Assembly: GCA_016876035.1 (NCBI GenBank)
Contig: VGOE01000002.1
Span: forward strand, 1,231-65,230
DNA length: 64,000 bases
Direction: 5' to 3'
Origin: Chloroflexota bacterium
Lineage (GTDB): Bacteria > Chloroflexota > Dehalococcoidia > UBA2247 > RBG-13-53-26
Shown here: positions 4,340-19,944 of the stretch, piece after piece
Layout of the letters: the number at the start of each line of letters is the position of its first letter
Numbering within the stretch: the first letter of the stretch is position 1
The notes under the pieces: generated by a model
The model's input: only the letters and a program-made list of their open reading frames with translations
Told to the model about the DNA's origin: nothing
The model's database searches: none
Translations under genes and position numbers: made by a program

Positions 4340-4732
4340 ATGGTTGAGCTTCCTTATGATAGGTTCATACGGGCTTATACCAAGGACGATATGGTATTCA
4401 AGGAGAACAACCCCGGGAAAGAAATGTTCATCGTCCGTTCAGGGAAGATACACCTGTATAAGGAGCGGCAAGATGGAAGAATCCTCCTCGCCGCTGTTCA
4501 CGAGGGAGAGTTTTTTGGGGAGATGTCTCTCGTGGATAACAGTCCTCGGTCTGCCACTGCCATCGCCGCTGAGGATACCGAGCTCATTGTTCTCGACGAA
4601 CCAAAGTTCCTTTATCTTCTCCACCACCAACCCGAGTTTGCTCTGGTCGTCATGCAAAAACTGTGCGAGACTCTGCGTCGGGTGACGGATGGATGGGCGC
4701 ACGAAAGACAAAATGGAAACATCCTTCCCTAA
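4340..4732 (+). CDS. Stand-alone cyclic-nucleotide-binding (CAP-effector-type) domain protein with no DNA-binding or other output domain
   Basis: It carries the canonical phosphate-binding cassette FFGEMSLVDNSPRSATAIA. It is only 130 aa. Confidence 0.75.
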   Translation: MVELPYDRFIRAYTKDDMVFKENNPGKEMFIVRSGKIHLYKERQDGRILLAAVHEGEFFGEMSLVDNSPRSATAIAAEDTELIVLDEPKFLYLLHHQPEFALVVMQKLCETLRRVTDGWAHERQNGNILP

Positions 4733-5477
4733 AGAACTGAGACCCAATATATATCAGCTACCGGCAGAAAAACCTGGGAGCCATGTCTACCTCATAAAAG
4801 GAGAAGCCAAGAATCTACTCATCGATACTGGGGTTACCGCCAAGTTCGCTCAGCTTGCCAGCCAGTTGCAGAAATTGGGCCTGGGTGTAAAGGATATACA
4901 TTTCGTCATTCTCACTCACGAACACTTCGACCACATAGGGGCCACCACCTTTTTCGATACGGCGGTTATTGCGGCTCACGCCCTGGCCGCAAACAAGATC
5001 GAACTTCAAGATGAGTTTGTAACCTACAACAAATACTTCAATATTCCCTCCAAGCCTTTCTATGCCAACCTCTGGCTGGAGGACAAGATACTGGTAGACC
5101 TGGGCAACTATAAGTTACAGGTACTTCATACCCCGGGACACAGCTCAGGATGCATCTGTCTCTATGAGCTTAGGGAGAAGGTGCTTTTCTCCGGAGATAC
5201 CGTTTTCTCTGGCGGGCTTCTTTCAGATATTGGTAGCTCGGGTAATATCAGCGACTATGTAAGTTCGTTACAGCGATTGGCTAATCTCAAAGTGGAAGCG
5301 CTTTACCCTGGACACGGGCCTATCTCTTCTGCTCCTGGAGAAGACATCAGTCGAGCGGTGGCATACGCCCGCACGATGATGGAGGAATCGAAACTACTTT
5401 TTGAAGCCCTGGCGAAGAGCGAGTCCCGACTGAAGGTCTTGAAAAAGTTTGGTAAGAAGCCTATTCAAACGGAATAA
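4689..5477 (+). CDS. MBL-fold metallo-hydrolase. The start is ambiguous between 4689 and 4713, and the ORF overlaps the 3' end of the cNMP-binding gene.
   Basis: It has the THEHFDHIG (HxHxDH) motif and downstream His/Asp ligands (HTPGHSSG, SGD). It may be translationally coupled to the upstream gene. Confidence 0.75.
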   Translation: MDGRTKDKMETSFPKELRPNIYQLPAEKPGSHVYLIKGEAKNLLIDTGVTAKFAQLASQLQKLGLGVKDIHFVILTHEHFDHIGATTFFDTAVIAAHALAANKIELQDEFVTYNKYFNIPSKPFYANLWLEDKILVDLGNYKLQVLHTPGHSSGCICLYELREKVLFSGDTVFSGGLLSDIGSSGNISDYVSSLQRLANLKVEALYPGHGPISSAPGEDISRAVAYARTMMEESKLLFEALAKSESRLKVLKKFGKKPIQTE

Positions 5478-6567
5478 CGCGCCCGGCTACAAGAGCCAGA
5501 AGTGGAGGTGGACCATCAAACTGGGAAAATTTGCACTAGGCATAGTCGGTTCACTGGCGATAGTACTCCTCGGTATTCATTTCCTCCTTCCCTCCTTTTC
5601 CCGCTCGGCTCTCTCTCTTCCTCTGTCAACGAAACTAACTGTCATCTCGCATGATGTGTTTGTGAAAGAGGGGGATTCGGGAAATTGGGAGAGGATAGCA
5701 ACAGAGGCAAGCCTAAAAGAAGGGAACTGGGTGAAGACTTCCTCCAAAGGGCGGGCTGTTATCACCTTCTTCGAAGGTAGCTCCACCGAGATTGAGCCTG
5801 ATACCGTTGTCTGCCTTGAAGAATTGTTCTCAACTCTCAAAGGTTCCAGCACAATAAGGCTGAATCAGCAGGCGGGCCACACATGGAGCAGCGTGGGAAG
5901 ACTCTTTGACCCAGCGTCACGCTTTGAGGTAACGACGACAGCGGCTGCAGCAGTAGTGCGAGGCACACTTATTGGTATTGATGCAGAAGAAGATGGACAC
6001 ACTACAGTCAAGGTTTTTGCAGGCGAGGCAGGGGTCAGAGGTGAAGGGCATGAGGTAACTGTATCTGCTGGCTGGCAAACCACAGTCAACCCTGGTCAAC
6101 CACCATCCCCTCCCTCCCTGATCCCTCCCCCATCACGCCAGCTCACCGTGTCTATAGGCTTATCTGCCTGGCTTCAGATAATTGACCCCCTGGGCAGAAA
6201 CACCGGCATGATTCCCCCGGGGTTCGGGGTTAACCGGATCCCCTTTAGCATTACCACGATTGCCGCCGAGGAGCAAACTGTGACTATAAATGATCCTGTG
6301 GCTGGAAAATATTTCATTGCCTTTTATGCGCAGGATAATGGCTCAGTTCGAGTGACTGCCAAGGCCACTTCACAGAATGGGTTCAGTCAGCAAGAAAACC
6401 GAGAATTGGAGGTTAAGAAAGGCTGGGGTTACTACATTTCACTGGAACTGGATGTTGATGAGCAAGGGGTTATCACGTCTCTGGTTTCTGGGGAGGTTAG
6501 GGCCCTGGAGCCTGGCTTCGTCGCCGACAAGTTTTATGGCATCAAATACAGGCCTTATGACTCATGA
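5449..6567 (+). CDS. FecR-domain membrane protein, the usual partner of CHASE2 sensors. The only in-frame start is a TTG at 5449.
   Basis: A single N-terminal TM helix (FALGIVGSLAIVLLGIHFLL) is followed by a FecR-like region (VITFFEGSSTEIEPDTVV), then a Pro-rich linker and an uncharacterised C-terminal domain of about 150 aa. It lies directly upstream of the CHASE2 cyclase. Confidence 0.6.
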   Translation: MVRSLFKRNNAPGYKSQKWRWTIKLGKFALGIVGSLAIVLLGIHFLLPSFSRSALSLPLSTKLTVISHDVFVKEGDSGNWERIATEASLKEGNWVKTSSKGRAVITFFEGSSTEIEPDTVVCLEELFSTLKGSSTIRLNQQAGHTWSSVGRLFDPASRFEVTTTAAAAVVRGTLIGIDAEEDGHTTVKVFAGEAGVRGEGHEVTVSAGWQTTVNPGQPPSPPSLIPPPSRQLTVSIGLSAWLQIIDPLGRNTGMIPPGFGVNRIPFSITTIAAEEQTVTINDPVAGKYFIAFYAQDNGSVRVTAKATSQNGFSQQENRELEVKKGWGYYISLELDVDEQGVITSLVSGEVRALEPGFVADKFYGIKYRPYDS

Positions 6568-6651: not shown

Positions 6652-8436
6652 ATGTTTTCCTATCTAAAAAGCCTTCTACGAAAAGGGACGAGAAAACAAA
6701 GGAGGTTACGAAACCACTCTCTAATCCTGTTGAGCTTAGGAGTAGTTTTTGGGCTGATTGTCTTTTCCATCCAGCCCTTCAGTAGCTTCAATTGGCGGCT
6801 TAAGGATTCTCTCTTCAACTCCAGAGCACCTACACCTGACATTGTCATTGTTGCCATTGACGACGAGACCTTACAGACTTACGGAAGGCTGGGCGACTGG
6901 TCCCGTTCCCTGCACGCCCAGGCCATAGATAATTTGAAAGCAGCCCAGGCAGAGGTAATCGGCTTTGATGTGCTATTCGCCGAGCCAGCAGAGGGCGATA
7001 CCGACCTGGAAGCAGCGATATCGGATGCCGAGAATGTCATCATGCCGGTTGTGGGTACTGGTCTTTTGAAGACAAAAGGAGAGGTTGTCTTCAATGATTT
7101 TGTTACCCCCACCACGGCTTTTTCCAGTGTCCCCGCCGCTCTCGGGCATGTTAACGTGCTTGTTGATGGTGACGGGACGGTACGCCGCCTCCCTGTCATC
7201 GCTAGTGATGTTTCTGGGGGAACCTATTCCTCTTTCTCCACAGCCATAGTTTCGGTGGCACGGGGCGAGCCTCCCCCCGATATCCCTACGGACAGCTCCA
7301 GGGGCATGCGCATTAATTATGTTGGTGGTCCTGGATCCTTTCCCCGCATCTCCTATAAGGACGTGATCACGGGGGATTTCGACCCACGGTTAGTTAGAGG
7401 AAAGATAGTGCTTATTGGCACAACCGCTGTAGGTAGTGGAGACTTGTTTAGCACCCCTGCCCCTGGTGGGCAAATGTATGGCGTCGAAGTACACGCAAAC
7501 GCCATAGATACCATTATCACAGGTAAATTTGTTGCCGATTCCGGGGGTGGAATTACTTTGCTGGCCATCCTCCTCACGGCAGCAGTATGTGGCGTGTTTC
7601 TGCCGCGATTGACGTTGCGGAGGAGCGGCCTGCTCACCGCGGCACTCCTCGGAGCCTTCATTGGGGCTGTTATTGTGTGTTTTGGCAAAGGCTATATGCT
7701 AGACATCATTTACACCCCAATAGCACTCGCCCTCTTCTTCGTAGGCGTGGTCCTCTGCCGCGTGACCGCTGAGATGGCCGATAGGCAGGAGGTCACCGGC
7801 CTTTTCGGCAAGTATGTCTCCCCGCAGGTTGCCGGGGCTATCATTGCGATGGCTGATAAGGATGAGCTGACTCTCACTGGCGAGAAACGTGAGGTAACGG
7901 TCCTTTTTGCGGATATGCGTGGGTTTACCAAACTCAGTAGCGGACTGGAGCCTGGTAAGGTCGTTGACATACTCAACACCTACTTTTCAGTTATCATCGA
8001 TTGCATCAATGCCAATGGCGGAATGGTTAATAAGTTTGCTGGTGACAACATAATGGCCATCTGGAACGCTCCCCAGAGCCAGCCAGAGCACGCTTTTCTG
8101 GCGGTCAAGGCAGCTCTTGAGAGCCAAAAAGCCATAGACGAGCTCAACCGAAAGTCAGGTCATGTTTCCCCGGTGGAATTTGGCATAGGTATCAATACTG
8201 GGGAGGCGACCGCTGGGAGCATAGGTTCCAAAGGAAGAGCGGAATACAGTGTAATTGGAGATACGGTTAACCTTGCGTCACGTATTTGCGGCGCTGCACC
8301 CGGAGGGCGAGTCTGGATAGGTTGGCAAAGTTATAAGAAAGTAAAGGAGAACGTGGTGGCAAGCCAACTCGAACCACAACACTTCAAGGGGAAAGAGGAG
8401 GCTTTTGCGGTTTATGAGGTAAGAGCCCTCGTGTGA
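6652..8436 (+). CDS. CHASE2-sensor adenylate/guanylate cyclase (class III nucleotidyl cyclase)
   Basis: An N-terminal TM helix and a periplasmic CHASE2-like domain are followed by three or more TM helices. The C-terminal cyclase domain carries LFADMRGFTKLS, KFAGDNIMAIWNAP and GINTGEATAG motifs. Confidence 0.85.
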   Translation: MFSYLKSLLRKGTRKQRRLRNHSLILLSLGVVFGLIVFSIQPFSSFNWRLKDSLFNSRAPTPDIVIVAIDDETLQTYGRLGDWSRSLHAQAIDNLKAAQAEVIGFDVLFAEPAEGDTDLEAAISDAENVIMPVVGTGLLKTKGEVVFNDFVTPTTAFSSVPAALGHVNVLVDGDGTVRRLPVIASDVSGGTYSSFSTAIVSVARGEPPPDIPTDSSRGMRINYVGGPGSFPRISYKDVITGDFDPRLVRGKIVLIGTTAVGSGDLFSTPAPGGQMYGVEVHANAIDTIITGKFVADSGGGITLLAILLTAAVCGVFLPRLTLRRSGLLTAALLGAFIGAVIVCFGKGYMLDIIYTPIALALFFVGVVLCRVTAEMADRQEVTGLFGKYVSPQVAGAIIAMADKDELTLTGEKREVTVLFADMRGFTKLSSGLEPGKVVDILNTYFSVIIDCINANGGMVNKFAGDNIMAIWNAPQSQPEHAFLAVKAALESQKAIDELNRKSGHVSPVEFGIGINTGEATAGSIGSKGRAEYSVIGDTVNLASRICGAAPGGRVWIGWQSYKKVKENVVASQLEPQHFKGKEEAFAVYEVRALV

Positions 8437-8485
8437 GCCTCCTCGGCAAGAACACATAACACTGGCTATCAGGAGGAAGACAAAG

Positions 8486-10246
8486 ATGTCATTCTTAAGC
8501 GCGTTACAGGGTGAGGAACTCACTATCTTAGAACAGTACCTCAGCCCTGTGCACTTCCCGCGCAACAGTTGCATTATGCGCGAAGGTGATCCAGGCGATG
8601 GGTGCTACATTATTGATGCCGGAACAATCCGTCTTGAGCTACAGAACGTGGAAACGGATACGGATAGTGTCCTGGGCTATTTGGAGGCAGGATCGTTTCT
8701 AGGGGAGTTCAGTTTGCTTGATGGCAGACCGCGATCTGCGACTGCTTACGCACACACAGACGTCAAAGGGCGCTGGTTCTCCAAGCAGAGTTTTGAAGAA
8801 ATGTGCCAGCAACATTCTAGAGTTGGCTTGATGATATCAATGGCTTTGGGTCAAGACCTTGCCACAAAACTGCGTGACTTTAACAAAAGACTTGCTGGTT
8901 ACATATTCGCCGATCAGATTGACGAGGATACAAACCGGATGGTTGCCCGCGCTGTAAAGGCCCAACAACATTTTGAAGAGTGGCCAGAAGACCGTGTCGA
9001 CGCCTTGCTACAGGATGTATCGCAATCCATAGCGGCACACGCTCAAGAGTTGGCCGAAGCAAATGTGGCCGAAACAGGCATAGGCAATGTTGAAGATAAG
9101 ATAACTAAGATCCGGTTTGCCAGCCTTGAGGTGTACAGAACGATAGCCGGCCGTTCGGCTGCGGGGCTACTCAGGACAGACGCACAAACCCGTGTTACGG
9201 AGATCGCCAGCCCGGTTGGGGTTGTACTCGGTCTAATTCCTGTGACAAATCCCGTGTCTACCGTTGTTTTCAAGGTTCTCGTCACTCTCAAAGGACGAAA
9301 TGCCGTCATTCTCAGTTGTCATCGCGATGCTTTGAAAGTCGGCGGCCAGGCGTGCGATATCATCCGGGATGTACTGGAGCGGCACGGAGCGCCAAAGGAT
9401 CTGGTGCAAACGGTGTGGCGACGAGCTAGCAGGCAGAAAACGATGATGTTTATGCATCACCCCGACGTTAAGCTCATTTTGGCGACTGGTGGCACGAGTA
9501 TGGTGAAAGCTGCCTATAGCTCTGGCACCCCCGCTATCGGGGTCGGCCCGGGTAATGCTCCCGTCCTGATTTGCGCCGATGCCGATTTAGCCAAGGCCGC
9601 ATCAGCAATCATTCAGAGCAAGTCCTTTGACAACGGCGTTATCTGCGGATCCGAAAACAACCTGGTTGTTGTTGCTTCGGTTCGTGATAGTTTCGTCGAA
9701 TCGCTGGAGGCGCATGGTGCAATCATACTGCGACCAGATGAGAAGAATCGCTTTGCTGCACAAGCCTTCGATCATGAGTCTTCAACTCTGAAGAAATCCA
9801 TCGTCGGCAAGTCTGCCCAGTTCATTGCTGACTTGACTGGTGTCCGCCGAGGCAAAGATGTCCGGCTAATTGTCATTCCTATAAGGCAAGATGAACTTCG
9901 AGGTCCCTTTGGACATGAAAAGCTGGCCCCTGTTCTCTCTCTGGGCACAGTGAAAGACGAGGAAGAAGGTCTTCAGGTCTGCAGGCAGATTCTGCTCAAC
10001 CAGGGGCAAGGGCATACAGCCATTATCTATACCGAGAATCAAGAACTGATGCAACGGTTTGGTCGCGAGATCCCGGCCAGCCGAGTTTTGGTCAATGCAC
10101 AAGGTGCTCAGGGTTGTGTCGGCCTCGGCACCGGCCTGACCCCGTCCTTTACACTAGGTTGCGGGACATTCGGGGGCAATTCCACGACCGACAATGTGAC
10201 CTATACGCACCTGATCAATGTTAAGAGGCTAGCCCTTAACCTGTAG
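8486..10246 (+). CDS. Fusion of an N-terminal cNMP-binding domain to an AdhE/EutE-type CoA-acylating aldehyde dehydrogenase domain
   Basis: The N-terminal 140 aa carry the cNMP-binding cassette (FLGEFSLLDGRPRSATAYA). The remainder resembles the ALDH half of AdhE, including FDNGVICGSENN with the catalytic Cys, and GVGPGNAP. A strong AGGAGGA Shine-Dalgarno sequence precedes the start. Confidence 0.8.
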   Translation: MSFLSALQGEELTILEQYLSPVHFPRNSCIMREGDPGDGCYIIDAGTIRLELQNVETDTDSVLGYLEAGSFLGEFSLLDGRPRSATAYAHTDVKGRWFSKQSFEEMCQQHSRVGLMISMALGQDLATKLRDFNKRLAGYIFADQIDEDTNRMVARAVKAQQHFEEWPEDRVDALLQDVSQSIAAHAQELAEANVAETGIGNVEDKITKIRFASLEVYRTIAGRSAAGLLRTDAQTRVTEIASPVGVVLGLIPVTNPVSTVVFKVLVTLKGRNAVILSCHRDALKVGGQACDIIRDVLERHGAPKDLVQTVWRRASRQKTMMFMHHPDVKLILATGGTSMVKAAYSSGTPAIGVGPGNAPVLICADADLAKAASAIIQSKSFDNGVICGSENNLVVVASVRDSFVESLEAHGAIILRPDEKNRFAAQAFDHESSTLKKSIVGKSAQFIADLTGVRRGKDVRLIVIPIRQDELRGPFGHEKLAPVLSLGTVKDEEEGLQVCRQILLNQGQGHTAIIYTENQELMQRFGREIPASRVLVNAQGAQGCVGLGTGLTPSFTLGCGTFGGNSTTDNVTYTHLINVKRLALNL

Positions 10247-10363
10247 AAGAAGGCCTTTTTCGGCTAGACCAATTCCTGAAGGCATGGGAGGAATATCTAG
10301 GGTAATGGACCATCCACCACGAATGTTCGCACACTTGGCTCATTCATTTGTGCTGATCACGAA

Positions 10364-10795
10364 CTAAAGCGCGTAGATCTCTTTGCCAAAAGTGCGAACC
10401 CAGTTCCTCTCCAGAACCTTCAGCGCTTCTTCGATCCTATCGACGCCAAGAATGACAATGGCTTGCCCGCTTTCTCCTCTGCCTAGGTAGGGGTAAAGGT
10501 GCAGTACATTGATGTTAGCTGCTTTTAGAGGCTTGAGCACCGCCTGAAGGCCGCCAGGATGGTCTGGGACCTCTACGGCAATGACATCAGTCTCCTTAAC
10601 GTAATATCCCTGGCTCTGCAGGACATTGACAGTCTTGGTGGGGTCATCAGTGACAAACCTCACAGTGCTAATGTCAGTGGTGTCGGCCACTGAGATTGCC
10701 CTGATGTTTATCCCTTCAAGGCCTAACCGCTCACTCACCTCCAGAAGCTTCCCTGGCACATTTTCCAGGGTAACCGAAATCTGTTTTACAAACAT
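10364..10795 (-). CDS. Tandem ACT-domain protein, last gene of the four-subunit OFOR operon
   Basis: It contains two ACT-like beta-alpha-beta-beta-alpha-beta units (VTLENVPGKLLEVSERLGLEGINI, VEVPDHPGGLQAVLKPLKAANINV). Confidence 0.7.
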   Translation of the reverse strand: MFVKQISVTLENVPGKLLEVSERLGLEGINIRAISVADTTDISTVRFVTDDPTKTVNVLQSQGYYVKETDVIAVEVPDHPGGLQAVLKPLKAANINVLHLYPYLGRGESGQAIVILGVDRIEEALKVLERNWVRTFGKEIYAL

Positions 10796-10825
10796 GCCAT
10801 ACCCCCCAATTTGTCCGTATATGAA

Positions 10826-11356
10826 CTAAAGGAGATCGCATCCTGCCATCAGGGCTTTACTGTCGATGGTGATCAGTTTCGTCTTATCCTTCAAGGTGCT
10901 CTTCAGTCCTTCAACTAAGGCACCAATGGAGACCAAGTTGCTCTTCTTGATGAATGCCCCCATCATCACCATGTTGGCCGATCTGGGACTGCCCAACTCC
11001 TCGGCGATACGACTGGCCGGAATCCCCAAAAGCTCGATATCTCCCCGGGAAACCTCCGCTTTGATCAGAGACGAGTTGAAGAACAAAGCACCGCCTGACT
11101 GGACCTTATTTTGGAATCTGATCAAGGAGGGTTGATTCATGGCAACAACGAGATCCGGAGCCGAAGCCACTGGTGAGGCAATCTCTTCATCTGATATGGC
11201 CACCGTGCAGTTGGCGGTACCCCCTCGGACCTCAACACCATAGGAGGGTAAATAGGTGACGTATTTCCCTTCAACCATGGCTGCCTGAGCCAGAACAAGG
11301 CCCATGGAGAGGACTCCCTGACCTCCAAAGCCAGCGAAGATCGTCTTAATCAGCAT
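10826..11356 (-). CDS. 2-oxoacid:ferredoxin oxidoreductase, gamma subunit
   Basis: The GFGGQGV motif is typical of POR/VOR gamma subunits. Confidence 0.8.
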   Translation of the reverse strand: MLIKTIFAGFGGQGVLSMGLVLAQAAMVEGKYVTYLPSYGVEVRGGTANCTVAISDEEIASPVASAPDLVVAMNQPSLIRFQNKVQSGGALFFNSSLIKAEVSRGDIELLGIPASRIAEELGSPRSANMVMMGAFIKKSNLVSIGALVEGLKSTLKDKTKLITIDSKALMAGCDLL

Positions 11357-12101
11357 CCTTTTGTCCAGTGAGATCCTTCATGACTCCCATCGGAAACTCT
11401 TTGATCATCTCTTTGCCAATCCATTGCCAAGACTCTAACGGGTCCCTCTTCCAATTGATGGGACACGGAGAGAGTATCTCCACCAGTGAGAAACCCAGAT
11501 CATCGAGCTGCACCTGAAAAGCCTTGCGGATGGCTCTTTTCGTCCTTCTGATGTTGGCCGGAGAATCCACCGCTGTTCGCTCAACATAGACCACGCCTCT
11601 GAGCATTGCCAGCATCTCGCTCACTCTGATGGGATATCCTTCCAGCCTGGCATCCCGTCCCAGAGGAGTGGTGGTGGTCTGTTGGGCCAGCAGGGTAGTC
11701 GGAGCCATCTGCCCACCAGTCATTCCATAAACGGCATTATTGACGAAAATGGCTGTTATCCTTTCCCCTCTGTTGGCAGCGTGGATGGTCTCTGCAGTGC
11801 CGATGGCTGCCAGATCACCGTCCCCTTGGTAGGTAAACACTATTGTTTCAGGAGAAGCCCTTTTTAGGCCGGTAGCTACTGCCAGCCCTCTGCCATGGGC
11901 CGATTCTGCCATATCAAGATCAAGATAGTTGTAGGCGAAGACGGAGCAGCCAGCCGAGTTGACCCCGACAATCCTGTCTTGAAGGTTCATCTCTTCGATA
12001 ACTTCAGCCACCAGTCGATGGATAATCGAATGCCCGCAGCCCGCACAGTAATGAAAAGGAGTTCTCTTCAGCAATTTGGGTCGGCTATATACCTTTTCCA
12101 T
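11346..12101 (-). CDS. 2-oxoacid:ferredoxin oxidoreductase, beta (TPP-binding) subunit
   Basis: It has a CAGCGH iron-sulfur motif and a GDGD TPP/Mg motif. Confidence 0.85.
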   Translation of the reverse strand: MEKVYSRPKLLKRTPFHYCAGCGHSIIHRLVAEVIEEMNLQDRIVGVNSAGCSVFAYNYLDLDMAESAHGRGLAVATGLKRASPETIVFTYQGDGDLAAIGTAETIHAANRGERITAIFVNNAVYGMTGGQMAPTTLLAQQTTTTPLGRDARLEGYPIRVSEMLAMLRGVVYVERTAVDSPANIRRTKRAIRKAFQVQLDDLGFSLVEILSPCPINWKRDPLESWQWIGKEMIKEFPMGVMKDLTGQKDAD

Positions 12102-12108
12102 CTCTCTG

Positions 12109-13176
12109 TTACTTGAGACCTTTCTGATAGTAATGGCGTGAGATTACCCGTAGAACCTCGCTGGGAGTGGGGATTACTCCTCCTGGCCTCCCGTAAAAGA
12201 AGACCTCCCCTTTGCCGTTCAAGGCCAGTTGCACATCCTCCAGCATCTGGCCCATGTTCAACTCGAAGTCCAGGAAGTACTTCGTCCTATTGGCGAGTTC
12301 CTCCACCTTGTTGGAAGGGAACGGCCATAGTGTGATGGGTCGAAACAGGCCAACCTTCAGGCCACTGGCACGCGCATTCTTAACCGCGCCGCGCGCAATG
12401 CGGGCCGCTATGCCAAAAGCCACCACAATCAGCTCAGCATCCTCAACCAGGAACGTTTCACAGGCAGTCTCTTCTTCCCTGATTAGCTGATATCTCCTGT
12501 ACAAGCTCCAGTTGATTTCCTCCATCTCGCTCGGGTTTGACGTACAGGTCTTGACAATCCGTCTCGGACGTCCCTTTGCTCCTCTTAAGGCACTGCTCCT
12601 TACTGGCAACCTTTCAGGAGGTTCGTGTTTGAATTCTACTGGCTCCATCATCTGCCCCAGCACCCCATCCGCCAGGATGATCACCGGAATCCTATACGTG
12701 TCGGCCAGGTCGAAAGCCCGATGAGTCATGTCTGCCAGTTCCTGTACCGATGAAGGCGCCAGAACTATGGTTCGATAGTCCCCGTGCCCCCCACCCTTGG
12801 TGGCCTGGAAATAATCTGACTGTGCAGCAGATATAGTTCCCAAGCCCGGCCCGCCCCGGGATATGTCGACAATAACAGACGGAAGCTCACAGCTTGCCAA
12901 ATAAGAGATTCCTTCCTGTTTGAGGCTCATTCCCGGACTAGACGAAGATGTCATTACTCTGACCCCGGCCAGGCTGGCTCCGAATACCATGTTTACGGCA
13001 GCAATCTCACTTTCCGCCTGAATGAAAGTACAGCCTTTCCTCTTGCTCAGGTGAGTAGCCATGTACTCGGTCAGTTCGTTCTGAGGGGTGATGGGGTAAC
13101 CAAAATAGCACTGACAGCCAGCCCTGATGGCGGCTTCTCCAACCACGCTGTTGCCATCCATGAGAACCTTAGCCAC
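12109..13176 (-). CDS. 2-oxoacid:ferredoxin oxidoreductase, alpha subunit
   Basis: The 355-aa alpha-subunit-like protein overlaps the delta gene by 8 nt. Confidence 0.85.
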   Translation of the reverse strand: MAKVLMDGNSVVGEAAIRAGCQCYFGYPITPQNELTEYMATHLSKRKGCTFIQAESEIAAVNMVFGASLAGVRVMTSSSSPGMSLKQEGISYLASCELPSVIVDISRGGPGLGTISAAQSDYFQATKGGGHGDYRTIVLAPSSVQELADMTHRAFDLADTYRIPVIILADGVLGQMMEPVEFKHEPPERLPVRSSALRGAKGRPRRIVKTCTSNPSEMEEINWSLYRRYQLIREEETACETFLVEDAELIVVAFGIAARIARGAVKNARASGLKVGLFRPITLWPFPSNKVEELANRTKYFLDFELNMGQMLEDVQLALNGKGEVFFYGRPGGVIPTPSEVLRVISRHYYQKGLK

Positions 13177-13378
13177 GGTAAACCTCTATTACGACCTCTG
13201 GGCAGACTAAGGCACAGATAGCACAGCCTGTGCACTCGCCGCTATCGCTGAAGGACGCGGGTGTATAGCCGCTGGCATTGAGTTTGTCGGACAGAACGAT
13301 CACGCTCTTCGGGCAGAAGGCTATGCAGGTCTGGCATCCCTTGCATAGCTCTTGGTCAATCTCAATATATCCCTTCAC
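13169..13378 (-). CDS. 2-oxoacid:ferredoxin oxidoreductase, delta subunit (2x[4Fe-4S] ferredoxin)
   Basis: It has two CxxCxxCxxxCP motifs in 69 aa. Confidence 0.8.
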   Translation of the reverse strand: MKGYIEIDQELCKGCQTCIAFCPKSVIVLSDKLNASGYTPASFSDSGECTGCAICALVCPEVVIEVYRG

Positions 13379-13538
13379 ACCTATCTCTGTCCTTTAACCT
13401 TCAACGTGAACGATCTATAACTCCGTATTATCCTATTCCGGATTACGTCAGACGTCAAACGGCTAGCTTCTTGTGAGTTTGATCTGGTGTGTTTCATCTT
13501 TTGCGGAAGGAACTTCCTCGTCCATCAGGTCTGGAAGC

Positions 13539-14510
13539 TTATCTCTTGTTCCTGAAGTAATCTATGTATCCTGAAGGATTCGTAAGGATTGAGTCCGGGA
13601 GTCTGGCTTTCGGTGAGCAGCTTTCGACATATTTGGAGATACGTTCCATTATTCCGAGGTCATCCTCGCCTGCCTGAACAGCCTCCTGGACAATCTTGGC
13701 AAAAGCGATACTGTTCTCCTTTACTTGACGAATAAGCTGGTTGTCCACATTGTCCCTGACTCCTTGGTGGGAATAGAAGAGAAGCCTGGGAGAAAGCTTC
13801 TCCAGCCTCCTTATCGTGTCCAGGTATGCGTCGGGATCAAACGGAGGGATTCCCGCCGGCAATACGACATCGGGCGCGCTGTCCAAGGGAAACCCCAGTG
13901 CCTCACCACAGAATAAGCCACCAGTTAGACTATCCAGTATGGAGATATGATGTGAAGCATGTCCTGGCGAGAATAGTATTCTCAGCGCCCTTTTCCCTAG
14001 CCGAATTTCTTCACCATCGCGGGCGATGTGAATCTGGCCTTGCGGGATAGGCAGAATAGGACCAAAACCCTCTTCGAAGTTGTCGCCAAAGGCCAGGCGG
14101 GTGCCCTGGATAAGTCTTGAGGGGTCTATCATGTGCGTTGCACCCTTGGGATTGAGAACCACCTTTGTCTGAGGGAGTCTCTGGGCTAGATAGCCTGCCC
14201 CACCTCCATGATCCACGTGTATATGGGTGGGAATTATGTATGAGACTTCGTCAAGATGCAGGCCGAGCCTCTCTGAATCGTCAAGCAGCCTTGAAGCGGC
14301 AACTGCCGCACCTGGCTCAATCAGTACCGAGGTGTGGTCAACCACCAGGTAGGCCACCTGAGGCATCATGAAGAAGGGGACTTTTCCGCAGTCAAGCAGG
14401 TATGTAGCCGGAGCTACCTCTTTGATCTCAACTGTCATTCTTGAGACTTGTGGACCACCCTCTACAGCTAATGATAGCACAAGTTCCAGGCAATTCATAA
14501 TCTTAGACAT
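13539..14510 (-). CDS. MBL-fold metallo-hydrolase (second copy in the window)
   Basis: It has the HIHVDHGGG motif. The start is uncertain between Met1 and Met25. Confidence 0.7.
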   Translation of the reverse strand: MSKIMNCLELVLSLAVEGGPQVSRMTVEIKEVAPATYLLDCGKVPFFMMPQVAYLVVDHTSVLIEPGAAVAASRLLDDSERLGLHLDEVSYIIPTHIHVDHGGGAGYLAQRLPQTKVVLNPKGATHMIDPSRLIQGTRLAFGDNFEEGFGPILPIPQGQIHIARDGEEIRLGKRALRILFSPGHASHHISILDSLTGGLFCGEALGFPLDSAPDVVLPAGIPPFDPDAYLDTIRRLEKLSPRLLFYSHQGVRDNVDNQLIRQVKENSIAFAKIVQEAVQAGEDDLGIMERISKYVESCSPKARLPDSILTNPSGYIDYFRNKR

Positions 14511-14711
14511 GAGGGGTGGCGCCGTGTCTACTCTCGACTCATATCGTCTCTCAGGGTGGGCCTAAGCTTGGCTCAATGCTAAAGCAGAAGGTTGCTGTGC
14601 GCCTCACAACTGGCTATTGTAATACCTCCGACTTCTAGCTATAATATTTCCCGTATTTGGCAGCCAGGCAGAGGATTTGCTATTGTCATGTATCTACAAT
14701 GGTGGTGAGAA

Positions 14712-16178
14712 ATGGCAATGCGAATTGTGCAGCAGACGAAGAGGGAAGTGGCGGAGCGGGTGCTTGGTCAGGCTTTAGGCCTTTTGGGCAACAGCCCAGA
14801 TAAAGGGGCTCAGTATGTTATCACAGCGATTGAGCACATTGCCAAGAGTGAAAAACAGGGCGTGATCCGTGACTTTGCCTACAACTGGCTAGGCGAAGGA
14901 AAACCAGGGCGTGAGTTCCTTGGCAGGATACTGGCTAACGTCCATCCCAATGTACGCCGGCGCTACATAGCCCGCATGGTGGTAAGCATGTTGTTCCGCG
15001 ACTCGCAGATCAGTGAGCGCTGCACGCGGAAACATGGCATAACCCCACCCTATACCATGCTGATATCCCCGACGATGAGATGCAACTTCCGCTGCCACGG
15101 TTGCTATGCCGCTAGCTACAGGCGTGAGGATGATATGGAGCCGGAGGTGTTCGACCGTGTGATAGGCGAGGCGGAGGATATAGGCATAAACTTCTTCATC
15201 ATACTTGGCGGCGAGCCATTCCTCTACCCAGAACTGCTGCCTACCATCCGCAAGCATAACAGGTCCTTCTTTCAACTATACACTAATGGCTCCTTGATCG
15301 ATAGAGCGATGGCCAAGAAGCTGGTGCAATTGGGCAATGTGGGGCCGCAGTTGAGCGTGAATGGGCCGGCCGAATACACGGATGCCTCACGCGTCAAGGG
15401 AGCCTTCAATCAGGTGATGCAGGCTATGGATAACCTCCGCGAGGCTGGTTGTGTGTTTGGTTTCTCTTCACTGTTGACCCGTGAGAATTTGGACGCGGTG
15501 TGCTCTGAGGAATGGATGGACCTACTGATTGAGAAGGGCGCCCTTTATGGTTGGCTTTTCTTGTACATGCCGGTGGGCGATGATGTTGACATCAACCTGA
15601 TGCCAACGCCGGAGCAGCGCAACAAGTTGCGGATTGCCATGCGTCACTTCCGACAGACGAAGCCCATACTGCCGATTGACTTCTGGAACGATGGGACGCT
15701 TACCGGTGGCTGCATTGCTGGTGGCAGGCTGTACTTTCACATAAACCATCATGGCGACGTGGAACCCTGTATCTTCTGCCACTTTGCCACCCATAACATC
15801 AACAACTGCAGTTTAGCCGAGGCACTAGCCTCGCCGTTCTTCATGGGCATAAAAGAGAACCAGCCCTTCAGTTACAATACGCTCCGCCCCTGCCCCATGA
15901 TAGACCACCCCGACACCATGTGGAGCATAATTCAGCAGCATGGGGCCAAAGCGACTCATCCAGGTGCTGAAAAGATGTTTACCAGTCTAGCACCGGAGAT
16001 CAAGAGGTATGCTGCCCGGGTGGAGGAGATAATGGATGATGTTTGGGATAACGATGACTATCATGACTGGGCAGCCAAGTGGGAGGCCATGTGCGGCATA
16101 CCACCGGAGAGGCTGAAAGCACGCCGTCAGGCCTATGAGGAATCAAGGGCCAAGAAGCGGAACCTCATTTTGGTGTAG
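14712..16178 (+). CDS. Radical SAM protein with a Cys-rich C-terminal (SPASM-like) region and an N-terminal extension of about 120 aa
   Basis: The CNFRCHGCYA (CX3CX2C) cluster is present. A second Cys cluster is CIAGG...CIFCH...C...C. It is divergent from the MBL gene. Confidence 0.8.
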   Translation: MAMRIVQQTKREVAERVLGQALGLLGNSPDKGAQYVITAIEHIAKSEKQGVIRDFAYNWLGEGKPGREFLGRILANVHPNVRRRYIARMVVSMLFRDSQISERCTRKHGITPPYTMLISPTMRCNFRCHGCYAASYRREDDMEPEVFDRVIGEAEDIGINFFIILGGEPFLYPELLPTIRKHNRSFFQLYTNGSLIDRAMAKKLVQLGNVGPQLSVNGPAEYTDASRVKGAFNQVMQAMDNLREAGCVFGFSSLLTRENLDAVCSEEWMDLLIEKGALYGWLFLYMPVGDDVDINLMPTPEQRNKLRIAMRHFRQTKPILPIDFWNDGTLTGGCIAGGRLYFHINHHGDVEPCIFCHFATHNINNCSLAEALASPFFMGIKENQPFSYNTLRPCPMIDHPDTMWSIIQQHGAKATHPGAEKMFTSLAPEIKRYAARVEEIMDDVWDNDDYHDWAAKWEAMCGIPPERLKARRQAYEESRAKKRNLILV

Positions 16179-16234: not shown

Positions 16235-17101
16235 TTACTTGAACTCGTTCATTAACTCGCGAAACTGCAAAGGATTGATTTCTTCCCTCACTAAAGGCGC
16301 TGCGGCAGAAACTCCGATGTATTCTTCAAAAAGAGGCCTTTCCTTTTGATAAATAACGCCTATAGGTATTCGGTCGCCCCATTCCAGTGCTTTATTGAAA
16401 GCGGCAGCCCTGTCGCCAGGATTGTAACCGACCTCAGCCTCTAATTTGTAGACCCTCTGCTTATACCACTGAAACGTGTTCTTGTTGTTAAAGGTAACGC
16501 AAGGCTGAAGGATTTCGATAAGCGCAAAGCCTCTGTGTTTGACTCCTATTTCTACCAACCTTGCTAGATGGTCAACCTCGCCAGCAAACCCGCGGGCTAC
16601 AAAGCTGCAATCACATGCCACTGCCAGCGCAAGGGGCCTGAGGCTGACCCAGGCTCCCTGGGGGTTCATTCTGGTGGTGTAGCCCAGGTCAGTAGTGGGA
16701 CATGCTTGACCTTTAGTTAGAGCATAAACCTGGTTGTTATGCACTAAATAGGTGATATCAACATTTCGGTTCATAGAGTGAATGAAGTGATTGCCGCCTT
16801 CACCGTAGGCGTCACCGTCACCGGAAATGGCGATAACTGTAAGCTCGGGATTGACTATCTTGGCGGCGGTGGCCGCAGGAATGGGCCTGCCGTGAAGTTC
16901 ATTCAATACATGGCATCTGGTATAGTGAGGGAATTTGCCAGCCTGGCCTATGCCTGACACCATCAGCACCCGGTGGGGCTCAATCTGGAGCGATACCAGC
17001 GCTTTTCTAACAGCACGCAAAATTCCGAAATTCCCGCAACCGGGGCACCAGGCGATTTCTGACGCCGCGGCGTAGTCTTCAGTAGTTACCTTGGTCACCA
17101 T
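16235..17101 (-). CDS. 2-oxoacid(2-oxoglutarate-type):ferredoxin oxidoreductase, beta subunit (two-subunit KorAB-like)
   Basis: It has the WCPGCGNFGIL and GDGDAYGEGG TPP motifs. Confidence 0.85.
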   Translation of the reverse strand: MVTKVTTEDYAAASEIAWCPGCGNFGILRAVRKALVSLQIEPHRVLMVSGIGQAGKFPHYTRCHVLNELHGRPIPAATAAKIVNPELTVIAISGDGDAYGEGGNHFIHSMNRNVDITYLVHNNQVYALTKGQACPTTDLGYTTRMNPQGAWVSLRPLALAVACDCSFVARGFAGEVDHLARLVEIGVKHRGFALIEILQPCVTFNNKNTFQWYKQRVYKLEAEVGYNPGDRAAAFNKALEWGDRIPIGVIYQKERPLFEEYIGVSAAAPLVREEINPLQFRELMNEFK

Positions 17102-18841
17102 TCAGGATGCCTCCTTTTTCACACCATTGACGATGTATTGTGCTGAGAACGGGCGTCCGTCGAACTTCAGGATAGTGGCGTCCGCCTTGATACCGGTCTC
17201 TCGGCGAGTCAGTTGGGCTAGTTGGCCGGTGGCATTACTCTCAATAAAGATGTTCTTCTTAGAGCCGCGCAGGATCAAAGCAACATCGTCTGCCGGGAAA
17301 GGCCATATCTCGTTCAGGTGCAGAACATTTACGGGAAGGCCCTCTGCCACCAGTAGCTCCTGAGCCTCCTTTATGGCGCCATAAGTACTTCCCCAGCCTA
17401 CCAAGGTGATTTTGGCACCGCGCTTCTTGTGAACGCGAGGTTTGCCTAGTTCACTTCTGAGACCGTCGAGTTTCCTCATGCGCTTGAGCACCATTTGCCT
17501 TCTGGTCTCGGCGTCTTCGATAGAGTGTCCCTCCTCGTTGTGCTCGTCAGAATCCGTTGCCACAAGGGCTTTCCCCACCAGAGGTAAGGCACGTGGGGAT
17601 ACGCCGGAATCAGTGATAAGATGCCTTTTGTAGGCGGTTAGCTGGTTCACTTCTTGTTCAGAGAGAAGCTCACCCCTATCAATTGTTACCTGGCTCAGAT
17701 CAAAAGGCTCGACAGTGCTGTAGGAATCAGCGAGGTCGTGATCAGTGAGGATGATTACCGGCGACTGATACTTTTCGGCCAAGTTGAAAGCCTTGATGGT
17801 CAGCCAGAACGCATCATCGATGCCGCCTGGAGCCAGGATCGCCCGTGGAAACTCCCCATGCCCGGCATGGAGGGCAAACCAAAGCTCACCCTGCTCTGTT
17901 CTTGTAGGTAGTCCTATCGCCGGACCGGGGCGCTGTCCCAGTACGACAACAACAGGTGTTTCCGTCATCCCAGCAAGGCTCAGGCCTTCCACCATAAGGC
18001 AAAACCCGCCGCCGGATGTGGCAGTCATGGCTCTGACGCCAGCATAGCCAGCACCTACGACCATGTTGATGGCCGAAATCTCATCCTCTGTCTGAATTAC
18101 TTTGACACCAAAATCTCTGCCCTTCTGGGCGACGTACTCCAAAATCGACGTGGTGGGTGTCATTGGATAACCAGCTACAAACTTGCAGCCGGCAACCATG
18201 GCACCAAAAGCAACTGCTTCATGGCCGGTGAGAAATATCTTGGTGCTTGCTCTTCGTGCTTTCAGACGCTGACCAAATTTCTTTCCCCTGTGCTGTAGGG
18301 CATAATCATAACCGGCTCGGGCAGCCTTCACATTGTCCTCGGCAACTTTCTCCCCGTGCCTGCTGAATTCCTGACGCAGAACTCCGGCAAGTAGGTCAAA
18401 ATCATATTCCACCGCCCCCAAAGCGGCACCAAGGGCAACCGTGTTTGACATTATTCTGTTTGCGGTCGACTGGATGGCCAGTTGCTCAAGCGGTACATCA
18501 AGCATAATTCCTTTGTCTGCTAACCCGCTCCTAACCGTTCGTTCATCGAGGATAACTAACGCCTCTCCCTCTGGCTTCATTTCATCTAGATGCCGGTCTA
18601 CTGTATCCTTGTTCAGAGCCAGAAGAATACTTACCTCCTCTGACGGTGCCCGCACTTTTCTATCTCTGACCCTCACCCGCGAGAAACTGTGACCACCCCT
18701 GATTCGGGACTCAAAGTCCTGGTCAGAATAGACATAGTAACCGCCTCTCATCATGGCCTTCGACAGGATAAAACTCACGGACTGAATTCCCTGCCCAGCT
18801 TCACCACCGATCATGAAGTTGAAATCGACCGTCATAGCCAC
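17102..18841 (-). CDS. 2-oxoacid:ferredoxin oxidoreductase, alpha subunit (fused gamma-like N-terminal domain plus alpha domain)
   Basis: The N-terminus has GGEAGQGIQS (gamma-like). The C-terminal region resembles OFOR alpha subunits. It abuts the beta gene with a 0-nt gap. Confidence 0.85.
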   Translation of the reverse strand: MAMTVDFNFMIGGEAGQGIQSVSFILSKAMMRGGYYVYSDQDFESRIRGGHSFSRVRVRDRKVRAPSEEVSILLALNKDTVDRHLDEMKPEGEALVILDERTVRSGLADKGIMLDVPLEQLAIQSTANRIMSNTVALGAALGAVEYDFDLLAGVLRQEFSRHGEKVAEDNVKAARAGYDYALQHRGKKFGQRLKARRASTKIFLTGHEAVAFGAMVAGCKFVAGYPMTPTTSILEYVAQKGRDFGVKVIQTEDEISAINMVVGAGYAGVRAMTATSGGGFCLMVEGLSLAGMTETPVVVVLGQRPGPAIGLPTRTEQGELWFALHAGHGEFPRAILAPGGIDDAFWLTIKAFNLAEKYQSPVIILTDHDLADSYSTVEPFDLSQVTIDRGELLSEQEVNQLTAYKRHLITDSGVSPRALPLVGKALVATDSDEHNEEGHSIEDAETRRQMVLKRMRKLDGLRSELGKPRVHKKRGAKITLVGWGSTYGAIKEAQELLVAEGLPVNVLHLNEIWPFPADDVALILRGSKKNIFIESNATGQLAQLTRRETGIKADATILKFDGRPFSAQYIVNGVKKEAS

Positions 18842-19146: not shown

Positions 19147-19944
19147 TTAAGTGACGACCTCCTCCACATGCCACTCAATCACACTGCTTGACCATACACG
19201 TCCCACTGCTATTTCCAGCACACGCCTATTTGGTTTTGGTATGTCTAATAGCGGCGGCAGGACGCGGTTATCAAACTGTCCCAGGAACGGACACTGCTTT
19301 TGAAGGGACAGTATCGTAGTCCATGCGCCACCGTAAACTACATAATCTAATGCCTTGGCCTGGGGCTCAAGGTGTTCTTGCGCATGGCAGCACACCCTAT
19401 CTAGAAAGAACTCTATTTGCTTTTCCCGGTGCCGGCGGAAACGCTGTTGTGAGGAACCACCCTTCTTGTGCCGTCCGTGGACAAGACCAGTTCCCACTTT
19501 GCTGGTGATAAGGTTTTCTCCCCGGCAAAGGCCGACGGCATAGGCCCCCAAACGTACCAGGATGAGGCCAATCCTGAGATCGGTCCTGAGCAAAGATCGC
19601 AGTGGTTCAACGTTGTACCCGTTAGTGCAGCATTCATCCGCAATTGGAAAGGGCGGTAGAATCAGGCACTTTCGTGAGCAGCTCCAAAATAGGACTGCCC
19701 CCGTTTTTGAACCAGCGGCAAAATCGGGCAATTCCCAGGGCATGTCCGGCGGGTCAATAGCCCTTTCCAGCAAATCCCTAATCTCCGGCAACGATAGCCC
19801 CAGTGGTAGATATAGTGACCTCGCTGCATCGGCAGTAGTTTCCAGTTCATCAAGGTAGCTGATCATCTTTCTCCTGTTGAGAAAGAATAGTCTAGGGATT
19901 AACACGCCAGGGTTAGCTTCCACCTGCGGTTCCTCCGACAACAA
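19147..19944 (-). CDS. Vms1/ANKZF1-like (VLRF1-type) eRF1-fold protein, a putative peptidyl-tRNA hydrolase
   Basis: The motif LVHGRHKKGGSSQQRFRRHREKQ resembles the eRF1 GGQ loop (HGRGGQSALRFARLR) in its GxxQ variant as seen in Vms1. It lies 12 bp downstream of mutS2 on the same strand. Confidence 0.55.
   Translation of the reverse strand: MLSEEPQVEANPGVLIPRLFFLNRRKMISYLDELETTADAARSLYLPLGLSLPEIRDLLERAIDPPDMPWELPDFAAGSKTGAVLFWSCSRKCLILPPFPIADECCTNGYNVEPLRSLLRTDLRIGLILVRLGAYAVGLCRGENLITSKVGTGLVHGRHKKGGSSQQRFRRHREKQIEFFLDRVCCHAQEHLEPQAKALDYVVYGGAWTTILSLQKQCPFLGQFDNRVLPPLLDIPKPNRRVLEIAVGRVWSSSVIEWHVEEVVT

Follow-up and report, generated by a model that had tools for sequence, protein, structure and literature searches.

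The 64,000-nucleotide stretch of DNA analysed here (the window; positions 1,231 to 65,230 of contig VGOE01000002.1, from a Dehalococcoidia member of the Chloroflexota) encodes a protein in which a cyclic nucleotide-binding (CNB) domain directly precedes a CoA-acylating aldehyde dehydrogenase (ALDH) domain. The same two-domain architecture recurs widely, its ligand-binding and catalytic residues are conserved, its linker has a fixed length, and a nucleotide cyclase gene adjoins the fusion gene repeatedly and in rearranged orders. The gene (8486..10246, +) starts with ATG and specifies 586 amino acids (aa) plus a stop codon, as delimited from the open reading frame list and from Pfam and NCBIfam matches; a Shine-Dalgarno sequence, AGGAGG, can be read directly at 8471..8476 (+), 9 nt before the ATG. 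The product is identical to NCBI MBM4461791.1, which is labelled 'aldehyde dehydrogenase family protein [Chloroflexi bacterium]'. Pfam places cNMP_binding at aa 22-110 and Aldedh at aa 146-542. Both exceed their cut-offs, in agreement with the first-pass annotation of the window, which had described the reading frame as a fusion of a cNMP-binding domain to an AdhE-type ALDH. The two strings singled out in that annotation are also present, namely the phosphate-binding cassette FLGEFSLLDGRPRSATAYA at aa 71-89 (8696..8752, +) and the AdhE-like catalytic loop FDNGVICGSENN at aa 381-392 (9626..9661, +), which includes Cys387. Immediately upstream, as the annotation had likewise reported, lies a cyclase gene, whose product combines a CHASE2 membrane sensor with a class III nucleotide cyclase (6652..8436, +; a Pfam assignment, predicted to be an adenylyl cyclase). 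The 49-nt gap between cyclase and fusion contains no terminator-like site, and promoter and terminator scans around the fusion gene gave no more than expected from shuffled sequence and are therefore uninformative.

The N-terminal beta-barrel (8549..8815, +; aa 22-110) matches PF00027 at 63.7 bits (E 1.6e-17, gathering cut-off 27.5), covering profile positions 2-89 of 89. Its cassette runs G73-E74 ... R83-S84-A85, with the canonical order and spacing of Gly-Glu ... Arg-(Ser/Thr/Ala)-Ala. When the N-terminal 147 aa were searched alone, the cassette aligned gap-free to both cAMP sites (A and B) of the protein kinase A regulatory subunit RI-alpha: LGEFSLLDGRPRSAT of the fusion protein aligns with FGELALIYGTPRAAT and FGEIALLMNRPRAAT, and Glu74 and Arg83 coincide with their cassette counterparts in the kinase subunit. 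Among solved structures the N-terminus matched PKA RI-alpha (E 1e-16) and Mycobacterium tuberculosis CRP (E 2e-11), the latter spanning aa 10-143. Gly73, Glu74 and Arg83 are invariant in 113 of 113 close homologs (at least 60% identity) and Ala85 is kept in 112 of them; the Glu and Arg on which the first-pass annotation had made its sensor assignment depend are thus retained throughout. The Pfam scan of the fusion protein found no helix-turn-helix (HTH) family, and a CRP model matches aa 16-144 only. The NCBIfam Pat model is likewise confined to the CNB part (aa 2-120, E 1e-10), far under its cut-off of 460. From these sequence matches we infer that the N-terminal domain would bind a 3',5'-cyclic mononucleotide.

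An AlphaFold2 (AF2) model built from a 136-sequence alignment (mean pLDDT, a per-residue confidence score, 91.7; pTM, a global one, 0.78) has strands within aa 20-99, a cassette helix at 76-79, a B helix at 100-109 and a C-helix at 111-143, as expected of the CNB fold with its eight-stranded beta-barrel, cassette helix and B and C helices. The pLDDT across these elements is mostly 80-94. The long C-helix (8816..8914, +) bridges the CNB domain and the first ALDH helix (147-163), and the spacing between Arg83 and Ala159 is 76 residues in 129 of the 136 sequences. Deviations occur in distant clusters and amount to +/-1 or to -4/-5 residues, the latter corresponding to about one helical turn. Such a fixed linker length is what would be expected if the C-helix passes on a conformational signal. 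Given that mean column entropy is 1.22 over the CNB barrel (aa 20-99) and 1.21 over the enzyme (aa 147-586), the barrel is as conserved as the enzyme to which it is attached.

The C-terminal part (8924..10243, +; aa 147-586) is a CoA-acylating ALDH domain of the AdhE-N/EutE type. It scores 115.7 bits against Pfam Aldedh (PF00171; cut-off 23, E 2.7e-33). In NCBIfam it reaches 468 bits against the N-terminal half of AdhE (NF010378; E 4.8e-140, equivalog cut-off 951), 418.6 bits against acetylating acetaldehyde dehydrogenase (TIGR02518; cut-off 620.1) and 334.5 bits against SauS (cut-off 600). Judged by these profile scores, the domain belongs to the broad CoA-acylating class and to no named enzyme's equivalog (AdhE, EutH-ACDH or SauS). 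The closest solved sequences are the acetylating ALDH of Geobacillus thermoglucosidasius (5j78, E 1e-102) and Escherichia coli AdhE (E 3e-96). In a Foldseek comparison of the AF2 model with the Protein Data Bank (PDB) only the ALDH part found matches, and no solved structure spanned both domains. This part superposed on 5j7i with a template-modelling (TM) score of 0.94 and a root-mean-square deviation (rmsd) of 2.0 Å, and 5j7i, 3k9d and 8cei all gave target-normalised TM scores of 0.93-0.94 at an rmsd of about 2 Å.

The nucleophile Cys387 (encoded at 9644-9646, +) aligns with the catalytic-loop Cys of AdhE. The segments FDNGVIC387GSE, HEK (477-479) and GGTSMVKAAYSSGTPAIGVGPGN, each conserved to 90% or more, have aligned counterparts in E. 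coli AdhE and 5j78, and a segment of the pattern GGxxMVKAAYSSGxPAIGVGxGN aligns with the same two enzymes. Because these catalytic and cofactor motifs match and are conserved to that degree, we predict that the ALDH is active. The iron-type alcohol dehydrogenase (Fe-ADH) domain of AdhE is absent both from the fusion protein, which ends with the ALDH at aa 586, and from the 36 relatives scanned, and no conserved alcohol dehydrogenase gene lies beside the fusion across the sampled loci. Acetyl-CoA is the most likely substrate, given that the top scores all go to acetaldehyde-forming enzymes and that the window encodes enzymes of acetyl-CoA/acetate pathways.

The best 120 clusters at 90% identity range from 100% down to 60% identity to the window protein; both PF00027 and PF00171 are present in 118 of them, and nearly all members are about 586 aa long. 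In an exhaustive search of 1.84 billion cluster representatives, about 30 further clusters at 50% identity align over both domains, down to about 30% identity, and of 36 sampled 31 have both Pfam domains. The combination of cNMP_binding with Aldedh, whose recurrence in other genomes the first-pass annotation had left to be checked, is therefore widespread, which argues that the fusion is under selection and is not an assembly artefact. Named sources are mostly metagenome-assembled genomes (MAGs) of Chloroflexota, Dehalococcoidia or Dehalococcoidales; the exceptions are one Desulfobacteraceae-labelled contig of 2.2 kb and one Armatimonadota protein. Most fusion homologs sit in unrelated gene contexts. 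An exact-peptide scan of genome contigs recovered the fusion at three loci (L011-L013) and unfused ALDHs at the remaining 66. Two clusters, P0079 (447 aa, 89% identity) and P0105 (458 aa, 82%), are recorded without a CNB domain, with PF00171 only and 76-78% query coverage; they may reflect truncated gene calls or a genuine loss of the N-terminus.

The cyclase gene is itself preceded by a gene for a FecR-domain protein (5449..6567, +) and by one for a metallo-beta-lactamase-fold (MBL) hydrolase (4689..5477, +), which runs 29 nt into the beginning of the FecR gene. All three share the strand of the fusion gene, with short gaps or overlaps. The MBL gene at 4689-5477 may be the first gene of the FecR/cyclase transcription unit, and its membership in the module is uncertain. 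In the cyclase, the metal-binding Asp pair is found in LFADMRG and FAGDN and the Asn and Arg in VNLASR, and all of these are invariant in five orthologs. The base-specifying residues, Lys in NKFAGD and Ser or Thr in EY(S/T)VIGD, are conserved in the same number of orthologs, the window copy having Ser (EYSVIGD). The closest structural match is Synechocystis Cya2 (2w01), which we take to be a guanylyl cyclase and which has Glu at the position of the window's Lys; 6fht, an engineered adenylyl version of Cya2, carries Lys like the window cyclase, and the Pseudomonas aeruginosa adenylyl cyclase CyaB (3r5g) has Thr where the window orthologs have Ser or Thr. Since Lys plus Ser/Thr at the base-specifying positions is the adenylyl cyclase pattern, the product is predicted to be cAMP, and the gene at 6652-8436 is predicted on its residues to encode a class III adenylyl cyclase.

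Cyclase orthologs that are 47-86% identical over their full length adjoin the fusion gene in further loci. Within the subclade that contains the window protein (subclade A), an orthologous cyclase is adjacent in six of nine sampled loci, the window included. It lies in tandem upstream at L011, where the fusion is 90% identical to that of the window and the ACT and 2-oxoacid:ferredoxin oxidoreductase (OFOR) genes are syntenic, and at L007 (76%). At L001/L002 (73%) it is divergent, with a FecR gene and an Rrf2 regulator between, and at L012 and L013 (78%) it is convergent downstream. A FecR-domain gene pairs with the cyclase at L001/L002 as well, and a FecR fragment is found at L011. Because the adjacency survives three arrangements (tandem, divergent and convergent), we argue that cyclase and fusion are functionally coupled. 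A rule that all homologs of at least 73% identity have the cyclase held for the first 11 loci and was broken by L080 (75%).

In many loci the fusion has an MBL-fold gene in its vicinity. One conserved phosphodiesterase partner was considered and rejected, as the MBL genes found in the window, at L001 and at L007 share no more than 21-23% identity or are unrelated. A different MBL-fold (Lactamase_B_2) gene, not orthologous to these, lies beside the fusion at L081 (8811-9620, -), L012 (1434-2204, +) and L013 (3262-4032, +), its copies being mutually 55-57% identical. Against the class II cAMP phosphodiesterase model (cut-off 23.7) this type reaches 23.5 and 21.2 bits, the L081 copy has a precomputed Anti-Pycsar_Apyc1 match, and the protein may be the module's phosphodiesterase. 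Downstream of the fusion at L001/L002 (L001 9887-10084), a 66-aa stretch is 58% identical to the window MBL protein; only a 37-aa gene is called there, and the stretch may be a decayed copy. At L081, beside the fusion and MBL genes, 9821-15761 encodes two proteins, one a stand-alone GAF protein and the other a giant exceeding 2538 aa, without Pfam annotation, in which a FecR-like segment is 37% identical to the window FecR over 160 aa.

Pocket residues that vary together divide the close family. Subclade A has G69, PRSA and W97; its sister, subclade B (38 clusters, P0056-P0107, 64-69% identity), has I or V69, PREA and Y97, and these changes suggest, as far as pocket sequence can indicate, a different ligand specificity. 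In three of five sampled subclade-B loci an RsbW-like HATPase_c_2 gene lies directly beside the fusion, together with genes for a SpoIIE phosphatase and a STAS protein (L008 9791-12056, L009 5750-7919 and L083 8813-14190). These partner-switching genes are orthologous between loci, with identities of 48-80%, and their order differs among three arrangements; no cyclase is nearby at any of the three.

More distant relatives vary in both functional sites. The catalytic Cys is lost (replaced by N, S, P or others) in P0129, P0135, P0139, P0145, P0154, P0165, P0177 and P0263, of which P0139 comes from an Armatimonadota MAG. Most of these Cys-less relatives keep the GE...RSASA cassette intact, and they may be cNMP-binding pseudoenzymes. 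About ten other clusters, for example P0126, P0132, P0144, P0147, P0149 and P0155, have the Cys and lack the cassette Arg. Extended architectures were found among P0127, P0131, P0134, P0154, P0174 and P0210, none of them with Fe-ADH. They include CNB-ALDH-SDR (906 aa), CNB-ALDH-Pyr_redox_2 (978 aa), CNB-ALDH-class III aminotransferase (989 aa), FHA-CNB-ALDH with an N-terminal FHA domain (698 aa), and Globin-ALDH (608 aa), in which a globin takes the place of the CNB domain. P0174 (927 aa) has a degenerate N-terminal domain with no significant CNB match, followed by the ALDH and a C-terminal O-methyltransferase.

We suspect, with a probability of roughly 0.55, that the fusion protein is a cAMP-gated CoA-acylating aldehyde dehydrogenase (acyl-CoA reductase) and the direct effector of the adjacent cyclase. 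In this scenario, an extracytoplasmic signal would be sensed by FecR/CHASE2, and the membrane adenylyl cyclase would make cAMP, the most likely ligand of the CNB domain. Binding of cAMP would rearrange the cassette and the B and C helices, and the C-helix of fixed length would carry this movement into the N-terminal helix of the ALDH and its cofactor domain. The activity that converts an acyl-CoA, in all likelihood acetyl-CoA, to an aldehyde and CoA with NAD(P)H, and back, would thereby be altered, and flux at the acetyl-CoA/acetaldehyde branch point could be redirected post-translationally, without a transcription factor. Allosteric regulation is what we infer from the architecture, and its sign could be either activation or inhibition.

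Several observations weigh against this scenario. Three subclade-A loci, L080 (75%), L081 (70%) and L082 (64%), have no cyclase within 7 kb, and neither do any of the eight distinct subclade-B and -C loci within 7-8 kb (the downstream flank of L084 is nearly nil). With three of nine subclade-A and eight sampled B/C loci lacking a nearby cyclase, the linkage is not universal; the cyclase could be encoded elsewhere in those genomes. Within the modelled structure, pLDDT falls to about 66 at aa 131-140, in the helix that would transmit the signal. As no NCBIfam equivalog cut-off is reached, the substrate assignment is provisional, and because distant Cys-less members keep the cassette, catalysis is not the sole possible output in the wider family.

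These last two points lead to different explanations of what the fusion does. The enzyme could act on another substrate, such as succinyl-, sulfoacetyl-, propionyl- or a longer acyl-CoA, which would be compatible with gating by a cyclic nucleotide. SauS is also a good match at 334.5 bits, Clostridium kluyveri SucD (8cei) matches at E 6e-78 and with the TM score given above, and the relatives with a C-terminal aminotransferase, SDR or Pyr_redox_2 domain have the composition expected for aldehyde pathways beyond ethanol, to which the O-methyltransferase of P0174, a relative without a significant CNB match, and the lack of a conserved neighbouring alcohol dehydrogenase gene may be added. We find this credible though doubtful, since the top scores all belong to acetaldehyde/acetyl-CoA enzymes (the AdhE N-terminal half, TIGR02518 and 5j78) and the window encodes OFORs, acetate kinase, phosphoketolase and aldehyde:ferredoxin oxidoreductase (AOR). 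A further departure would be a CNB domain that does bind a cyclic nucleotide and has a non-catalytic output, such as oligomerisation, filament formation, localisation or partner binding, with the ALDH as a scaffold or moonlighting module. The eight distant 50%-identity clusters that have lost the Cys, most with the cassette intact, fit such a role; the RsbW-like kinase gene in three of five subclade-B loci hints at protein-protein signalling, and AdhE-type ALDH domains form higher-order assemblies, the spirosomes 6ahc and 8uhw being among the matches. However, C387, G388, S389 and E390 reach 90% conservation or more in the window protein and its 113 close homologs, the cofactor and CoA motifs are conserved as in a working enzyme, and spirosome formation by AdhE involves the ADH domain, which the fusion lacks. 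For the window protein we therefore consider a non-catalytic output unlikely.

The N-terminal domain could instead be a ligand-independent dimerisation or structural module, or bind something other than a cyclic mononucleotide. Within the CRP/FNR superfamily, the ligands of CNB-fold domains include haem, 2-oxoglutarate and halophenols, the ten distant clusters without the cassette Arg are unlikely to bind cyclic nucleotides, and the long C-helix resembles the dimerisation helix of CRP, the M. tuberculosis CRP match covering aa 10-143. The canonical cassette, gap-free to both PKA RI-alpha sites and with Gly, Glu and Arg invariant in 113 homologs, and the repeated linkage to a cyclase with intact predicted catalytic residues leave this only a slim chance for the window protein. 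A cyclase next to a CNB protein also recalls the Pycsar anti-phage systems, in which case the ALDH would be an abortive-infection effector. PADLOC PycC models match the cyclase domain (best 91.4 bits) and Pycsar effector models match the CNB domain weakly (21 bits), but these matches reflect folds common to class III cyclases and CNB domains. Here the cyclase carries a CHASE2 extracytoplasmic sensor and has a FecR partner, and the would-be effector is a conserved metabolic enzyme without a TIR or membrane-disrupting domain. Many loci have the fusion and no cyclase nearby, and the fusion is conserved lineage-wide in housekeeping or metabolic neighbourhoods and not in defence islands. We have rejected a Pycsar-like defence system on these grounds, and its probability is negligible.

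If the fusion is a cAMP-gated CoA-acylating ALDH, it could be one part of a larger module in which the FecR/CHASE2 cyclase, cAMP and the enzyme act in series, possibly with an MBL phosphodiesterase as reset, and from which the family diversified into a PREA ligand class, wired to the partner-switching kinase and phosphatase, and into Cys-less, cNMP-binding pseudoenzymes. In uncultured anaerobic Dehalococcoidia, an extracellular cue would then directly open or close an acetyl-CoA/aldehyde redox valve, with the fusion as a dedicated effector that needs no transcription, and the family would represent a broad and unrecognised class of second-messenger-controlled metabolic dehydrogenases. We advance this wider scheme tentatively and hold it at somewhat less than even odds.

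The metabolic setting of the window is partly as the first-pass annotation had drawn it. Of the fermentative enzymes that it listed, AOR (120-2156), two OFORs (10826-13176 and 16235-18841), acetate kinase (40910-42124) and phosphoketolase (43939-46410) are indeed present, but housekeeping genes lie between them and they do not make up a single operon. Convergent to the fusion, 10364-13176 (-) encodes an ACT-domain-pair protein and a three-subunit OFOR, a synteny that is kept in the 90%-identical L011 (3953-6766) and not in more distant loci. The phosphoketolase-like reading frame 43939-46410 (-) is 823 aa long and matches XFP at 130 bits and XFP_N weakly (42 bits). Next come a phosphorylase-family gene (42186-43919, -; its profile match is partial, covering positions 323-583 of 713) and, after it, acetate kinase, and the three genes may form a compact route from glycogen or sugar phosphate via acetyl-phosphate to acetate. 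Further along, 19147-19944 (-) encodes acVLRF1, an Actinobacteria/Chloroflexi VLRF1-type release-factor-like protein (101.9 bits), and adjoins a MutS2/Smr gene (19957-22338).

From the perspective of known cyclic nucleotide signalling, the nearest counterpart is the mycobacterial cAMP-regulated protein lysine acetyltransferase MtPatA (Rv0998; also MSMEG_5458), which like the fusion has an N-terminal CNB domain directly before its catalytic domain. In MtPatA the CNB domain occupies residues 12-142 and the catalytic domain, which is allosterically controlled by cAMP, begins at 146 (PMC4964394); the boundaries in the fusion are nearly equal (about 10-143, and 147). Both proteins bear on acetyl-CoA-linked metabolism. 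The output of MtPatA is a GNAT acetyltransferase that modifies proteins, whereas that of the fusion is an oxidoreductase acting on a metabolite; MtPatA comes from Actinomycetota and the fusion from Chloroflexota; and MtPatA autoinhibits through a C-terminal lid, of which no equivalent is evident in the fusion. Given that only its CNB part matches the Pat model, the fusion is not a member of the MtPatA family, and by analogy it may work in a similar way. A 2024 paper from a laboratory working on mycobacterial cAMP gives acyltransferase, DNA-binding and predicted ATPase domains as the effector partners of CNB domains in mycobacterial cAMP-binding proteins (PMC11107214).

With AdhE, EutE/TIGR02518, 5j78/5j7i and Listeria 3k9d the ALDH part of the fusion shares its fold (TM 0.94) as well as the FDNGVIC(A/G)SE Cys loop, HEK and GGxxMVKAAYSSG motifs. 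Unlike these enzymes the fusion lacks Fe-ADH and falls below every equivalog cut-off, and its 146-aa N-terminal sensor domain is absent from all of the solved acetylating enzymes matched. It has in common with CRP/FNR proteins and PKA regulatory subunits the CNB fold, canonical cassette and long post-barrel C-helix, but it has no HTH and no kinase-inhibitory segment; its enzyme is instead fused in cis. Other bacterial CNB fusions include the CNB-EAL phosphodiesterase Bd1971, CNB-patatin/NTE esterases, the channels MloK1 and SthK, and Pycsar CNB-TIR/TM effectors, and family 2B encapsulins are a further type of CNB-effector fusion. In these proteins, and presumably also in CNB-ALDH, one cyclic nucleotide sensor controls a fused output. 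We know of no CNB fusion in which the output is a dehydrogenase of central metabolism. Full-text literature searches for the architecture, or for a link between cAMP and ALDH in Dehalococcoidia, found no relevant description, and databases hold it under generic names such as 'aldehyde dehydrogenase family protein'. We rate the central-metabolic output domain as new; as CNB-regulated enzymes are already known, the finding is not categorically new.

There is good reason to consider what such a protein would mean. The prevailing picture of bacterial cAMP is almost wholly that of a signal to transcription, relayed by CRP, and well-studied cases of direct post-translational enzyme control by cAMP are few, MtPatA being the main one. 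If the fusion is gated by cAMP as we suspect, a second messenger would act directly on a branch point of central carbon and redox metabolism, and the protein may be a natural ligand-switchable acetyl-CoA/aldehyde enzyme for use in metabolic engineering. Subsurface and sediment communities are rich in Dehalococcoidia and other Chloroflexota, most of them uncultured, and the fusion would provide a first functional handle on cAMP signalling in these lineages.

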